Part shown: positions 3,747 to 26,605 of the stretch, one piece after another
How the letters are laid out: the number at the start of each line of letters is the position of its first letter
Numbering within the stretch: position 1 is the first letter of the stretch
Source: Promethearchaeota archaeon
Lineage (GTDB): Archaea > Asgardarchaeota > Lokiarchaeia > Sigyniarchaeales > SOKP01
Length of the DNA: 26,605 nt
Assembly (NCBI GenBank): GCA_030603385.1
Contig: JAUVXW010000046.1
Coordinates: forward strand, 1 to 26,605
Reading direction: 5' to 3'
Translations under genes and position numbers: made by a program
Notes under the pieces: generated by a model
Told to the model about the DNA's origin: nothing
Databases searched by the model: none
Seen by the model: only the letters and a program-made list of their open reading frames with translations

Positions 3747-3785
3747 TTTGCTTCAGCTAAACTTCTATTATTCACCTTTTAAATA

Positions 3786-3820
3786 ATATTAAATCCTTTA
3801 TATTATTTATAGATTAATTG
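3786..3820. repeat. 35-bp direct repeat copy B (imperfect extension to 3768)
   Basis: Identical to 1990-2024; lies in the divergent intergenic region upstream of the corrinoid gene. Confidence 0.95.
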
Positions 3821-5630: not shown

Positions 5631-5998
5631 AATATAATTCAATTTTTGATTTATTATTTTATAATTATAATTTATACTAATTAGTACTTGTGCCAATTTA
5701 CTTTTTTGCCATATTAGTTCCTAACTTGAGATAGCTAAATTGAATATAATTTAAAACATACTACTAATTATAGATTAACAACAAATTCAAAAATTTAGAC
5801 AATAAGAGTTAAACCACATCTATTTATTTTATTAACCATATATTTATTATAGAAACCAAATTTAATAGTTTAATATTATAATAAAATATTATTAAGGTTG
5901 ATTTATACAAGATTTATAACAGATATCAATCATTAATAATTAAAATATAATAGTAAAAATCCAAAAGTCTGACCTTAAACGGGGAAAGGTATTTAAGA

Positions 5999-21632: not shown

Positions 21633-22379
21633 TTAACTCGCAGCGTAGAAGGGAAGAGTCGAGAGTTTATTCTGTATAGTTTTAAATGGATGCAAAACCA
21701 TTTTTTTGGTGAGTTCCAATGCATCCTTAGTATCTGAGTAAATGCTATAACATTCCATCGCCTCTCCAAACACAGCTTTTAACATTGCCTTCTTATTAAG
21801 GAGAGCATCCTTTGCGACATCTTTAGGCATATTACTCATTGTTTCTTTAAAAACTTTCTCTATAGCTGTTTTAACCTTCATTTTGGGCTTATCCTGTAGT
21901 TTTTTAACTACGCAATCCATATAGCCTTTATATTCACTTACATAATTAAACGTGTTTTCAACATAATCAACAACTTTTTGAGCGTCAATTTTATTCACAT
22001 CAAAACTTTGAAATACCTCTTCAATCCTTTCTTTCGCTTTTTCTACAAGTCCATCTTTAATTTCTTTAATTAGAACATCGACTGAACCGCCACTAGATAA
22101 AACTTCATTAGCCTTCTGTTCTAATCTTGAGAGTAGATTTTTTTCAATTTCTATTGGTGAAGATTGAGTGCTTTCATGAATCTCTTTTATTGCTTCGACT
22201 TGTTCCGAATCATATTTATTCACTATAAGATCTTCTGCAATTTCTTGCTGTAATTGATCTTCTTGTTGTTCTCCTGCCATGCATGAAGGACAAATTCCGT
22301 TATATGTATGTACCTCACCTATGTAGAGTGCAGTATTATATACCTTCTTACATTTCTCACAATGATTATATTTTACCAT
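21633..22379 (-). CDS. Hypothetical protein with N-terminal CxxC...CxxC zinc ribbon and helical body
   Basis: CEKC...CPSC followed by Q/E/K-rich predicted helices; no family recognised. Confidence 0.7.
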   Translation of the reverse strand: MVKYNHCEKCKKVYNTALYIGEVHTYNGICPSCMAGEQQEDQLQQEIAEDLIVNKYDSEQVEAIKEIHESTQSSPIEIEKNLLSRLEQKANEVLSSGGSVDVLIKEIKDGLVEKAKERIEEVFQSFDVNKIDAQKVVDYVENTFNYVSEYKGYMDCVVKKLQDKPKMKVKTAIEKVFKETMSNMPKDVAKDALLNKKAMLKAVFGEAMECYSIYSDTKDALELTKKMVLHPFKTIQNKLSTLPFYAAS

Positions 22380-22596
22380 AAATAATTCATACCTTGCTTT
22401 TTTTAAACAGAGCTCTTTTGTATTTACATCATTTGTTTAAATTTTCATTTCCCAAAAGAAAAATTCACATTTTTTTCTTTTAATCTTTCATAAGTTCATG
22501 TTTGTATTTTAACTAGTTTAATAGTATGATTAACTTAATATATATACTTTTTTACATCAATTCAGCTATATAAGCATTTAACCAATTAAGGGTTCT

Positions 22597-22618
22597 GAAA
22601 TCAGACTCTGAATTTACC
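22597..22618. repeat. 22-bp dispersed direct repeat, copy 1 (candidate recombination site)
   Basis: GAAATCAGACTCTGAATTTACC with palindromic core TCAGA-C-TCTGA. Confidence 0.97.
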
Positions 22619-22740
22619 TTTTCATCCCAAATTTCACTCAATTTCAACGAAATACATAGTTATGGGGAACCAAAATGGTTTTAACATATATATTTTAATG
22701 GTAAAGAGTTCTTCATCATTTTTATTAGAAAAATTATATG

Positions 22741-22784
22741 AAAAAGTAAGATTAAAAATAAAAAAGTAAGATTTATATTCTTAC
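22741..22784 (+). promoter_or_regulatory. Putative vapBC promoter/operator
   Basis: AAAAAGTAAGATT twice (22741, 22761); inverted repeat GTAAGA (22766-71) / TCTTAC (22779-84) flanks TATA-like TTTATAT (22772-78) about 32 nt before the antitoxin ATG. Confidence 0.6.
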
Positions 22785-22809
22785 ATCACTATTTTCTAAT
22801 TGAGAAGAA

Positions 22810-23049
22810 ATGGAAATAAAATATTGCAAAATATCAACAAAAGGACAGCTTACGATCCCTAAGGATTTTAGAGAAAAGCTTAAGCTTCATGAAGGGGATG
22901 AAGTAATCTTATACATTCAAGATGATGGTATAATAATCAAACCAAAAATAGTTCACTTAGGAATGCTTAGGGGCTTATTAAGAGATGAAATCGTCTTAGA
23001 CAAGGCAATTGATTTTATTCAATCCGAGAGGAAAAAATGGAGGATTTGA
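22810..23049 (+). CDS. vapB: AbrB/MazE/SpoVT-family antitoxin
   Basis: KISTKGQLTIPKDFREKLKLHEGDEV swapped-hairpin signature directly upstream of a PIN gene. Confidence 0.9.
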   Translation: MEIKYCKISTKGQLTIPKDFREKLKLHEGDEVILYIQDDGIIIKPKIVHLGMLRGLLRDEIVLDKAIDFIQSERKKWRI

Positions 23050-23050
23050 G

Positions 23051-23455
23051 TTGAAATCTTATATTGTTGATGCAGTGGCTTTCTTGGCTTTCTTAGCAGA
23101 TCAACTTCCTACAAAAGCAAACGATATATTTAAAAAAGCAGAGGAAAAACAAGCAAAACTCTTATTGCCTTCAATTGCTCTAGGAGAAATGCTCTATACA
23201 ATTTACAAAGGAAAGGATATCTTCGGAAAAAATGTACCTTTAGATAAAATTGATTTTCTATTTTTAATCTTAGAAGAGGGAGACATCCTGGAACTGGTTG
23301 ATTTAGACGTGAGAGCATGGCGTATATTTAATGGATTAACCATCCCTGAACTCCATGATAGGATGATAGTCACTTCTTTTATCTATCATAAAGCAACGGC
23401 AATCTTAACTAACGATGCTGAAATCGCAGAAGCAGTGCCAATAATTTGGGATTGA
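23051..23455 (+). CDS. vapC: PIN-domain toxin
   Basis: YIVDA, IALGE, ELHDRMI and ILTND acidic PIN motifs. Start placed at TTG 23051, 1 nt after the antitoxin stop. Confidence 0.88.
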   Translation: MKSYIVDAVAFLAFLADQLPTKANDIFKKAEEKQAKLLLPSIALGEMLYTIYKGKDIFGKNVPLDKIDFLFLILEEGDILELVDLDVRAWRIFNGLTIPELHDRMIVTSFIYHKATAILTNDAEIAEAVPIIWD

Positions 23456-23484
23456 GGAAATTTTTTTATTAAATTTTTCAAAGG

Positions 23485-23516
23485 AATTTTCATTGAAATC
23501 AGACTCTGAATTTACC
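23485..23516. repeat. Dispersed direct repeat, copy 2 (22-bp core 23495-23516 plus 10-bp left extension)
   Basis: AATTTTCATT-GAAATCAGACTCTGAATTTACC. Confidence 0.97.
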
Positions 23517-23601
23517 TTTCCATTCCAATTTCAAATGAATTTGGGACAAAATTTAAAAAGGCTCGAACCTTGTGTCTCTTAAAAAAAATAGAAATTAAAA
23601 A

Positions 23602-24000
23602 TTAGTCTAGATTTTCACCCAAGGCAGCCTTAGCTTTTTCTAAGTTGGTTACCCCGATTATAAGTCTGTTAAGCCCAGCAAAATAGATTAAATCAATATT
23701 AACACCAGCATTACCTATTTTTCGAGCTATTTTCCCACCTGTCCCTGGCTGTCCTAAGATATTTGTCCCTGGCTGTCCTGTCAGAACCAGTACTTCACGT
23801 ACAGCACTAACTTGATAACCAGCTTGTTCGAGTATGGAACGAGTCTTGGTCTCATCTTCTACTAAAATATGTATAAAGAATTCATCTTTTAAAGGAAATC
23901 CACATACTCCTTCCATATTGATACCATTTCTCCCAAGAGTCTCCCCCAGGTCTGCAAGCTTACCTGGAACGTTTTTCAAAATAACAGTTAAATCTATCAT
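23602..24000 (-). CDS. ACT-domain protein (two ACT repeats)
   Basis: LKNVPGKLADLGETLGRNGINM and QPGTGGKIARKIGNAGVNIDLIY. Confidence 0.88.
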   Translation of the reverse strand: MIDLTVILKNVPGKLADLGETLGRNGINMEGVCGFPLKDEFFIHILVEDETKTRSILEQAGYQVSAVREVLVLTGQPGTNILGQPGTGGKIARKIGNAGVNIDLIYFAGLNRLIIGVTNLEKAKAALGENLD

Positions 24001-24092
24001 TTTTTTCTCCTATTTTTGTTAACTTTTATTAATTTAAACCTTATTTCGAGACTACTAGATTTCTTCATTTTTAAATATTATCTAATGAAACT

Positions 24093-24190
24093 TCAATCAC
24101 TAATTAGCTCTTCAAATTCTTTTAAACCTCTAATATTATCAAATCTTTCATCTAAAATCGCCCGTTCAATATAACTTCTTTTTTAACTTT
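24093..24190 (-). pseudogene. 3' remnant of a probable TPR-protein gene
   Basis: 24179-24093 reads RSYIERAILDERFDNIRGLKEFEELISD-stop, resembling the TPR C-terminal capping motif (Y...A..D..FD.IR....F..LI); no in-frame start. Confidence 0.5.
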
Positions 24191-24224
24191 TTCGAAACAT
24201 ATTTTTTGTTTAGTCTTTTCATAG

Positions 24225-24256
24225 AATTTTCATCGAAATCAGACTCTGAATTTACC
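24225..24256. repeat. Dispersed direct repeat, copy 3 (core 24235-24256)
   Basis: AATTTTCATC-GAAATCAGACTCTGAATTTACC, 31/32 identical to copies 2 and 4. Confidence 0.97.
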
Positions 24257-24377
24257 ATTCGGGAATCTTAAACATATATTCTCATTAAAATACTTTGAAT
24301 TTAAATATCGAATCTCGGATATTCTTATGTTATAATCAAAATTATCAGAAGATTCGATTGAAACACATTACCTAAAT

Positions 24378-24614
24378 ATGTTTGTTTATTTTTCAGAATT
24401 TGATTTCAGTGAAATTTTTGAACCTCTAATCCCTTTTCTAAATGGATTTAACAACTTCTTTTATATGCTCTTCAAAAATGCAAATTATTTGTTCTTTTTT
24501 CTCTTTCTAATTATGAGTGTCCTTTTATTGATAAATGCAAGAGAAAGAGAATATGATGAAAAAGTTCATGGAAAAGAAGAATTGGTGAAAAAGCGTGGAA
24601 GAATATTTTCTTAA
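24378..24614 (+). CDS. Small membrane protein, possibly a 3'-truncated gene
   Basis: 78 aa: one TM helix and a charged loop ending KKRGRIFS-stop where another TM helix might be expected. Confidence 0.5.
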   Translation: MFVYFSEFDFSEIFEPLIPFLNGFNNFFYMLFKNANYLFFFLFLIMSVLLLINAREREYDEKVHGKEELVKKRGRIFS

Positions 24615-24791
24615 TGACAAAATTGCTTACACCCTGGATTTTTGTCTTTTAGTATAGGTACACTCTAATTTACTCCTCCCCCTATTGTATTTACGACCTT
24701 GTACTTAGGTCTCGTTGGCAGGAGCCACTTTTTAAATTATAAAAGTTTAAAATTCATGTATTATTTGAGAAATACTATAGAGGTTCGAAAA

Positions 24792-26201
24792 ATGACGAAT
24801 AACCTGACTAAATCAAAACATGATGACTTAGAGAAAGATTGGAAAAAGATCGCATTTGCAAGATTGTTTTTTATTTTATTTTCGAGTTTTTATATTATTG
24901 CTTTAATCTTGTGTTTTATTCCGGGTATTCCCGTATTCATTGTCGCTCCAATCATCATTATTACTACGGGATTCCTTTTTGTTACTATGGTGGGAGTTTC
25001 CCGCCTTCCAACAAAATCAGTAGAAGAAATTAAAAAGAGAAAATTTTTCAAATTAGGTTTTTTATTCAACTTTCTACTTTTAATTTATTTGGAATATATT
25101 TTCTTTCTTACTCTAAGCCAACATTACTATCCTGAGGCTTTTTTACTCCAACCAGTCTATTGTCTTCCTTTTATAGTTTCTTTATCTGGAACATTTCTAA
25201 AGAAAATATGGAAAAAAAGAATCATCGGATTTTATCTTGTTTGGTTATTTATAGGAGTTCCGTTTCTATTTTACGAATTTTCAATCAAAATAAATAGTAA
25301 AACGAATCCAAAATATACCTTTTGGTGTAAAGTTGACAATATACCTTCAAAACAAGAAACTATTGATATTTTTAATGAATTAGATATTGATCTTATAATT
25401 CCGGTAAATGTCGATGATTTCAATCAAACCCATAAGGATAAAATTCAAAATTTAATAGATAATGAAGTCAAAATTTATCTTAGTCTTGTTGGGTATATGG
25501 ATTTTCCTAATATTGACAACCATCAAAGTGTACTTGAAACCTATTATTATGTAAGAACTTTGGATTTTTTTAACAATTTGTCAGGATTTTATATTGACGC
25601 CGAGCCATATATGAGCACGTTTGACAAATTCATTGAATTAGAATGGTATGAGGTTATTCCATTTTTGGTAAGTAGGTTTCCTTCTATCAAAGAGATTGAA
25701 AATGCGACACTTGGATATCAAAAATTAATCAATGAAGTTCATAAAGACGATAAAACCATAGGAATTGTTAAAAATTTAGAATTTGGATGTTATATTGACA
25801 CGGCTTTTGGAAACATATATCATTTGAAATTAAATTGGGATTCGGAAATCTTTATGCATTATAGAATTTCTGCCGGCGGAGGATATAGAAGATTTACCGA
25901 TTTTGAAATGTATGATACAATTAGTTATTATGATGGCGAAGTAATGTTAGGAAGTTTTAAAAGTGGATATGAATGGAATGAAATTATTACCGACATAACA
26001 ATATGTAGCCATTTCAATGAAAAAAGAATTTATTTCTTTAGCTGGGGGGCATTTGAAGAAAAATTTGGTGTCGAAAGTTTAAGAGATCTAAAACCTTACG
26101 AATCTTATACGATTAAATACAATATGTGGGATGCAATTTGGAGATTTATTTATTATCACGGAATTGATTGGGGTAACATAATTGTTGGTTTTTTTGTATG
26201 A
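24792..26201 (+). CDS. Membrane-anchored protein: about 5 N-terminal TM helices plus putative TIM-barrel (glycoside hydrolase-like) domain
   Basis: Start at ATG 24792 (MTNNL) after a GAGGT SD; GFYIDAEPY resembles the DxE strand-4 motif of GH18-like barrels; hydrophobic C-terminus. Confidence 0.65.
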   Translation: MTNNLTKSKHDDLEKDWKKIAFARLFFILFSSFYIIALILCFIPGIPVFIVAPIIIITTGFLFVTMVGVSRLPTKSVEEIKKRKFFKLGFLFNFLLLIYLEYIFFLTLSQHYYPEAFLLQPVYCLPFIVSLSGTFLKKIWKKRIIGFYLVWLFIGVPFLFYEFSIKINSKTNPKYTFWCKVDNIPSKQETIDIFNELDIDLIIPVNVDDFNQTHKDKIQNLIDNEVKIYLSLVGYMDFPNIDNHQSVLETYYYVRTLDFFNNLSGFYIDAEPYMSTFDKFIELEWYEVIPFLVSRFPSIKEIENATLGYQKLINEVHKDDKTIGIVKNLEFGCYIDTAFGNIYHLKLNWDSEIFMHYRISAGGGYRRFTDFEMYDTISYYDGEVMLGSFKSGYEWNEIITDITICSHFNEKRIYFFSWGAFEEKFGVESLRDLKPYESYTIKYNMWDAIWRFIYYHGIDWGNIIVGFFV

Positions 26202-26294
26202 GATTTTTATATTTAATATTTTTATATCAGATTAAAATTATAATTGATTCTTAATACCTCTATAAAAAACCAGAGTTTTTGATAGCTATTTAAA

Positions 26295-26322
26295 ACATTA
26301 TAGAAACTATATTATGTTAAAT
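26295..26322 (+). other. dif-like 28-bp site (tentative)
   Basis: ACATTATAGAA-ACTATA-TTATGTTAAAT has the 11-6-11 layout, and its right arm equals the canonical XerD arm TTATGTTAAAT. Confidence 0.35.
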
Positions 26323-26368
26323 GCAATTTCATTATCACAATAATTTCGAATTTGATCTTTCTTCACTA

Positions 26369-26400
26369 AATTTTCATTGAAATCAGACTCTGAATTTACC
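26369..26400. repeat. Dispersed direct repeat, copy 4 (core 26379-26400)
   Basis: AATTTTCATT-GAAATCAGACTCTGAATTTACC, 32/32 identical to copy 2. Confidence 0.97.
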
Positions 26401-26605
26401 AATCATGTAGATCTATCGTTGGATATTATTAAAATTATTAAATAATACAAATTTAATATAAAGCAGTTTTTCAATTAATAAACTATTTTAATCAAATCTT
26501 TTAGACTAATTATTTTTTTAGCATATTTAATACCGATACTGTCGTCATATGATAATTCATTTTTAGCTGTATTTTGACGTTCAATTAAAATGGGAGATAT
26601 TTTAG

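Follow-up and report, generated by a model that had tools for sequence, protein, structure and literature searches.

A 26,605-nt stretch of Lokiarchaeial DNA (the window), which is one whole contig (C42) of a Promethearchaeota genome (G000), carries near its right end four co-oriented copies of a short repeat with small gene units between them. With a probability of roughly 0.8, the repeat serves small integrative elements as their attachment (att) site, and these elements form a group that lives in one family of Lokiarchaeia and decays there to cassette arrays. This reading draws on the observed anatomy of the site, its linkage to an integrase, elements with two sites, deletion intermediates, exchange of units, and in-frame combinations of protein bodies and tips. 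An earlier note on this DNA, made from the sequence alone, had proposed a gene-capture platform built by site-specific integration, with the recombinase encoded elsewhere. Site-specific integration is supported, and the suggested recombinase search succeeded: a cognate tyrosine recombinase lies next to the site in relatives, where units are exchanged at the repeat. However, the site belongs to an element that is itself mobile, and a genome has arrays at several loci, so a single fixed platform of the integron type does not describe the system.

The 22-bp repeat is found at positions 22597, 23495, 24235 and 26379, always on the plus strand and between genes, with 898, 740 and 2144 bp between successive copies and no copy within the first 22.5 kb, exactly as first described. 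Its chance expectation is 7e-9 in the window and 1e-6 in the genome, and a reversed-genome control gave 0 matches. Comparison of 111 copies shows that the 22-mer is the core of a longer conserved site of ~47 bp, which begins at -19 and ends at +28 as counted from the core, and that the first copy in the window has only its right part. The site consists of two imperfect 13-bp inverted arms separated by an asymmetric 14-bp spacer; the left dyad pointed out earlier is perfect in copies 2 and 4. Neither strand has a stable fold (z -0.7 to +0.8), which rules out an attC-like hairpin, and the consensus is without AAC/GTT ends. A CRISPR array is ruled out by unit sizes of 277-8269 bp, the failure to find Cas1 in this assembly and the lack of an Rfam match to the site. 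The first assessment that the motif is neither attC, dif nor CRISPR thus stands, the layout being 13-14-13.

The site is present in 51 of 53 Lokiarchaeia genomes of the same genus, in 36 of 42 of a sister genus and in a small number of further genera in the family (family-wide, 95 of 134 sampled genomes), and in 0 of 19 genomes of other families searched. Matches in sequence collections are Asgard metagenome-assembled genomes, mostly labelled Promethearchaeota; viral contigs gave no exact match. Genomes have several site loci, on both strands, and the single-contig genome G006 has arrays at seven. The genome-wide scatter that would speak for a dispersed repeat was therefore seen in part, yet neighbouring sites are co-oriented in 165 of 165 pairs and inverted in none. 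The cargo between them lies in either orientation (130:121), with one gene per unit in 112 of the 165 units. Only 2 tRNAs were found in 32 loci, with no pattern to indicate tRNA targets.

Many sites are flanked on the right by nested, truncated versions of a single master sequence, which leads into a ribosome-binding site and an open reading frame (ORF), and searching with this ORF led to the intact element in relatives. It consists, in order, of the site, a gene for a ribbon-helix-helix (RHH), coiled-coil and winged helix-turn-helix (wHTH) protein, the integrase gene, in many cases a helicase-like gene in convergent orientation, then cargo and another copy of the site, over 3.7-9 kb. Whole elements with two sites are found at L208 (5.1 kb), L210 (3.7 kb), L207, L206, L239, L240 and L243. 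The site lies upstream of the integrase at a distance of exactly 621 nt in 13 of 14 informative loci, defined by an integrase at least 65% identical with an intact 5' end; no site was found beside integrases of 53% identity or less. The integrase, whose gene overlaps that of the RHH protein, is a tyrosine recombinase of 302-307 aa (PF00589 E=7e-23 for the 302-aa protein) with all of the catalytic residues R151, K175, H242, R245, H268 and Y278; one copy of its gene is at L167:2019-2927. It scores 49 bits against the IntI profile TIGR02249 (cut-off 265) and lacks the IntI insertion, with only 67 residues from K175 to H242 and no insertion against the host XerA.

The RHH-wHTH protein has 172 aa and a NikA-like RHH domain (E=9e-6). 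Its structure model shows RHH helices, a coiled coil and a wHTH, for which Foldseek returned weak wHTH matches only (E>0.05). The convergent gene encodes a P-loop protein of 410-505 aa resembling phage SF2 helicases, and the 505-aa version is placed near phage SF2-helicase-like clusters (Atlas 0.94-0.97); both likenesses are leads only, and Pfam gave nothing above cut-off for these genes. The layout recurs in another genus (L368 and L380, G112:C31), where the site is diverged, keeps its last seven bases and has an ORF leaving it leftwards.

Decay of the element can be followed across 335 sites, a sample enriched for long remnants. Less than 20 nt of the master is retained at 207 sites, 20-79 nt at 85 and 80-619 nt at 31, while 12 run into or through the integrase; in L226 a deletion fuses the start of the RHH gene to the end of the integrase. 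The units of the window retain 18, 68, 4 and 0 nt, and their sequence suggests that they are enzyme-less deletion derivatives of the element.

In the proposed mechanism, the integrase would act on two att copies and exchange them within the spacer that separates their arms. Such recombination would produce circles with one att that insert at any resident att, resulting in head-to-tail stacking. Integrated copies would lose the RHH-integrase-helicase core through deletions that start at variable distances to the right of att, leaving att, a leader remnant and cargo. These derivatives would remain mobile wherever an intact element provides the integrase in trans, and the RHH protein may control direction or expression.

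Exchange of units and competing explanations

Thirty pairs of site-to-site units, each pair drawn from two genomes, are 79-97% identical and lie in unrelated surroundings on either side. At L129 a 1,083-bp unit lies between two sites, whereas L077 has a single site with the same flanks, so that the comparison of relatives proposed earlier does reveal a unit present or absent at one site. An empty-site search against the genome of the window gave one clean case only, its relatives being too diverged; joints whose sides measure about 30 nt are repeat-induced and were not taken as evidence of excision. Polymorphisms of the site at -9 and leftward track the left flank and those at +24 and rightward track the right flank, and most half-site breaks fall in the interval +1 to +10, an outcome biased by the detection windows. 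Together, the linkage and the breakpoints place the crossover in the core, probably in the spacer.

Several points weigh against the att reading. The integrase is present in only 7 of 54 genomes of the genus, whereas sites are in 51 of 53; no remnant of integrase, RHH or helicase gene was found in this assembly (94% complete), and one 80%-identical integrase has lost its site. No circular form was found, nor did whole-contig loci show terminal repeats. A single integration into a naive target would not yield an array with a full site at either end, yet several arrays are of this kind. Sampling of loci was targeted, and the unit pairs are not independent. Homologs of the window's own cargo are mostly not site-bounded elsewhere, so the mobility of its units is deduced from other units, and the cargo was drawn from the ordinary accessory pool.

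Among the alternatives, the best placed, though unlikely, is that the site is the operator or promoter of the RHH-integrase operon, surviving as a scar, and that host homologous recombination between the ~47-bp repeats shuffles the units. About 80 nt separate the site from the RHH start downstream of it, several short dyads in the site are of the kind bound by RHH or wHTH proteins, and the integrase is missing from most genomes. An operator would not explain why the site also bounds the far end of elements, why hundreds of conserved copies exist without the operon, why half-sites break in one zone, or why there is a strict reading-frame register with the variable tips of giant genes described below. 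Moreover, imperfectly matching repeats of ~47 bp offer little length for RadA-type recombination. The site may be both operator and att.

It is still less probable that the sites are substrates of the host XerA, in the way that pdif modules are of XerCD, with the element's integrase incidental. A XerA-like gene does exist in the host (on C26), and sites persist where the element's integrase is missing. The site has no 11-6-11 dif layout, however, and it is tied to, and co-diverges with, an integrase that shares only 17% identity with host XerA.

A repetitive extragenic palindromic (REP) or miniature inverted-repeat transposable element (MITE)-like dispersed repeat, or products of one-ended transposition, would fit several loci per genome on both strands and right flanks that are nested truncations. 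The absence of a stable hairpin, a linked enzyme that is a tyrosine recombinase and not a transposase, units bounded by sites at both ends and ends conserved across genomes all speak against it; the co-orientation and the site-to-site conservation of units largely refute this reading, which has very little probability left, and one-ended transposition, offered earlier as an alternative, is not needed. That contigs sharing the repeat were wrongly joined has a negligible probability: arrays are often at contig ends, but they also lie inside long contigs and in a single-contig genome, the contig-end overlaps of 141 nt are longer than the repeat, and contigs of other samples cover unit 1 from one site to the next and also span copy 3.

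The array of the window and its surroundings

The window has four sites and three complete units, non-autonomous in the att reading, which are part of a longer array. Its left flank is kept across the genus to about 21574 and is variable beyond; an accessory gene on the minus strand (21633..22379), found in many contexts in the genus and often beside a site, precedes copy 1. This copy (22596..22623, plus strand) is without match over its left 19 bp, and contigs from three other samples appear to hold an allele ~81 bp longer in which the left half is full. Unit 1 encodes an AbrB/MazE-type antitoxin (vapB, 22810..23049, plus strand, PF04014 E=2.3e-14) and a PIN-domain toxin (vapC, 23009..23455, plus strand, PIN E=5e-7), the vapBC pair recognized at first sight. 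Homologs of this vapC in relatives (72-74% identity) have no sites around them. Contigs of independent samples (X2, X3) cover unit 1 from site to site.

Copy 2 (23474..23521, plus strand) has the full consensus, with arms complementary at 10 of 13 positions and the asymmetric 14-bp spacer. It is followed by a 68-nt leader remnant of the element's RHH-integrase operon (23517..23584, plus strand), 88-97% identical to intact elements. The cargo of unit 2 is a double ACT-domain gene (23602..24000, minus strand, ACT E=1e-7), also correctly named before, which has a 70%-identical paralog elsewhere in the genome. Beside it lies a fragment of a broken gene (24016..24200, minus strand), for which the suggested identity as a TPR remnant was not confirmed.

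Copy 3 (24214..24261, plus strand) is bridged by one contig (X1), possibly from the source sample. Unit 3 is composite. Its short ORF (24378..24614, plus strand, 78 aa) does belong to a membrane gene, as proposed, but is only the truncated 5' part of a 194-aa gene that is intact after a site in two relatives. The 500-aa membrane protein that follows (24699..26201, plus strand) has no Pfam match and did not bear out its description as GH-like; a copy 97% identical lies in a different context in G061. Copy 4 (26358..26405, plus strand) opens unit 4, of which the 3' end of a HAD-like gene is visible (26456..26605, minus strand; 96% identity to a cassette gene in G002). This gene is duplicated in the genome, and as a result the assembly is broken there.

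The genome has 15 copies in total, comprising co-oriented clusters at the ends of contigs C13 (3), C19 (5) and C42 (4) and three singles. The end of C42 and the reversed start of C19 have 141 nt in common, as do the ends of C13 and C19, and both overlaps belong to the HAD-like gene, a cassette gene in a relative. These overlaps indicate that the array runs past 26605, as had been anticipated, and continues on C13 or C19, which gives this locus 7 to 12 sites. On C13, one unit (L001:11011-12159) has a tryptophanyl-tRNA synthetase-like gene, of which C46 has a second copy at 30% identity. Both ends of the 41-kb contig C19 lead into the duplicated HAD-like gene, and its defence-rich island (G000:C19:1-32000) is either inserted in the array or circular. 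A lone site (L003:8379, G000:C26:53378) lies in a heterodisulfide-reductase cluster, where two relatives have the same right flank and a different left one.

None of the five tyrosine recombinases of this genome is near a site, and they were rejected as the enzyme of the array; two near-identical ones of ~200 aa (G000:C50:45715-46308 and C41:9869-10477) have the catalytic domain only. A second, unrelated co-oriented repeat (G000:C43:786-9264; copies at 786, 2136, 5044 and 9264) suggests another array with a different site. Within the window, a 42-nt AT-rich palindromic direct repeat (1983-2024 and 3779-3820, 98% identical) surrounds a 1.8-kb two-gene block, with a weaker third copy near 5740.

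Giant genes and their tips

In relatives, the site also occurs within coding sequence. Its opposite strand is open in one frame, the encoded peptide beginning KVNS, and long frames leaving the site leftwards number 22 in that frame and 0 and 1 in the others. At about eleven loci the site is in frame within a large gene, with a conserved body before it and a variable end, or tip, after it. One such protein has 12,290 aa with the site at residue 11,497, and another locus has an open frame of 11,803 aa. Two bodies are 82% identical up to the site, while their tips are 21% identical. Three tip types were found in two states, joined to a body and, without a start, next to the site of an array or element. 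About 9 of 15 RHH-bearing elements have a start-less tip directly left of the site, and in some relatives the tip on the element is accompanied by a partner gene downstream of it.

Many tips open with an S24/S26-like peptidase domain (best E=1.5e-6). One ends in a deaminase-like segment (PF14424 toxin-deaminase E=0.0045, below cut-off; Atlas 0.90 at low recognition) for which a PDB sequence search found no match, and others have nuclease-like motifs, judged by eye only. LRR genes come after several tips. Pfam gave nothing above cut-off on the giant bodies. By analogy, the layout of body, variable tip and downstream gene is that of polymorphic toxins, and the tips are presumably toxic. A circle integrating at an in-gene att would install the element's tip as the new C-terminus of the giant protein and displace the old tip down the array.

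The link of the site to giant genes is real but not universal, since the two giant genes of this genome are without a site, as are most giant-gene loci sampled (site in 7 of 30, with short flanks); both observations count against the wider reading. The two genes are at G000:C3:19347 onward (open frame of 14,833 aa) and G000:C41:11349-38702 (9,117 aa); they have nuclease-like ends, and the latter adjoins a 202-aa tyrosine recombinase and small ORFs. On balance the evidence leans slightly towards elements that serve as couriers of toxin tip-plus-immunity modules, rewriting the C-termini of giant surface proteins through the in-frame att, with their enzyme-less derivatives forming a family-wide cassette system independent of integrons. 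If tip exchange is true, it suggests inter-microbial conflict as the function of the unexplained Asgard proteins of more than 10,000 aa.

Comparison with known systems

The system is not described in the available parts of the literature on archaeal integrons, Atabeyarchaeia elements, archaeal tyrosine recombinases, rAID, giant genes and effector displacement, and literature searches, mostly outside subscription papers, found no description of the cassette system or of tip exchange. Integrons and clusters of attC sites lacking integron-integrases (CALINs), including archaeal integrons (Ghaly et al., 10.1101/2022.02.06.479319; PMC9668308), are alike in their tandem one-gene cassettes, co-oriented sites, tyrosine recombinase and arrays that often have no enzyme. 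The Asgard site differs in having neither the attC fold, nor RYYYAAC/GTTRRRY ends, nor an attI/attC distinction. Its integrase falls below the IntI cut-off, lacks the IntI insertion and rides a mobile unit of the array itself, and the cargo lies in both orientations with its own promoters. Lokiarchaeia have a concrete, integron-like route to gain and reshuffle accessory genes that is invisible to attC-based searches, and a small enzyme-site pair is supplied in the 302-aa integrase and the 47-bp site.

The features by which a tyrosine-recombinase integrative element can be tested are present in relatives, namely a catalytic integrase between direct att repeats, and gain and loss at att. Tandem-accreting small integrative elements and satellites, such as integrative and mobilizable elements (IMEs; PMC5704250) and Yucahu-i of Atabeyarchaeia (PMC11529989), share an att, an integrase, a DNA-binding accessory gene and a helicase-like gene within a unit of 4-9 kb, and non-autonomous derivatives. 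By comparison, the Asgard element has no tRNA or single conserved target, has sites at many loci and no relaxase that was seen, and decays family-wide to integron-like arrays.

rAID-1 of Bacteroidales (10.1101/471110) also combines a non-IntI tyrosine recombinase with a repeat-punctuated gene array and toxin conflict, but there the recombinase is fixed and the orphan immunity genes that follow it all point the same way, while the Asgard cargo is mixed and includes carrier-fusing tips. The pdif modules of XerC/D resemble the units in having one or two genes, often toxin-antitoxin, short sites and a recombinase in trans. Pairs of pdif sites are usually inverted, whereas all Asgard sites are direct. 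The Asgard site also has an imperfect 13-14-13 layout in place of the 11-6-11 of dif, as defined in PMC8371274, and a dedicated integrase.

For the giant genes, the C-terminal displacement of Rhs, CdiA and type VI secretion system (T6SS) effectors (PMC5361080) is close in layout, with a fixed in-frame junction, a constant N-terminus, interchangeable tips and downstream partner genes. That study reports no evidence in Vibrio cholerae for an integrase driving effector insertion; if tip exchange is true, the Asgard elements would provide integrase-driven C-terminal displacement, for which the V. cholerae work found no evidence in its own system. They also differ from the systems treated there in the tip carrier, which is an archaeal protein of 9,000-14,000 aa. 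The R64 shufflon (Rci, sfx, PilV) likewise has a fixed junction, a constant N-terminus and interchangeable tips, but it works by inversion; the Asgard sites are all direct repeats, so that exchange would proceed by integration and excision of mobile units.

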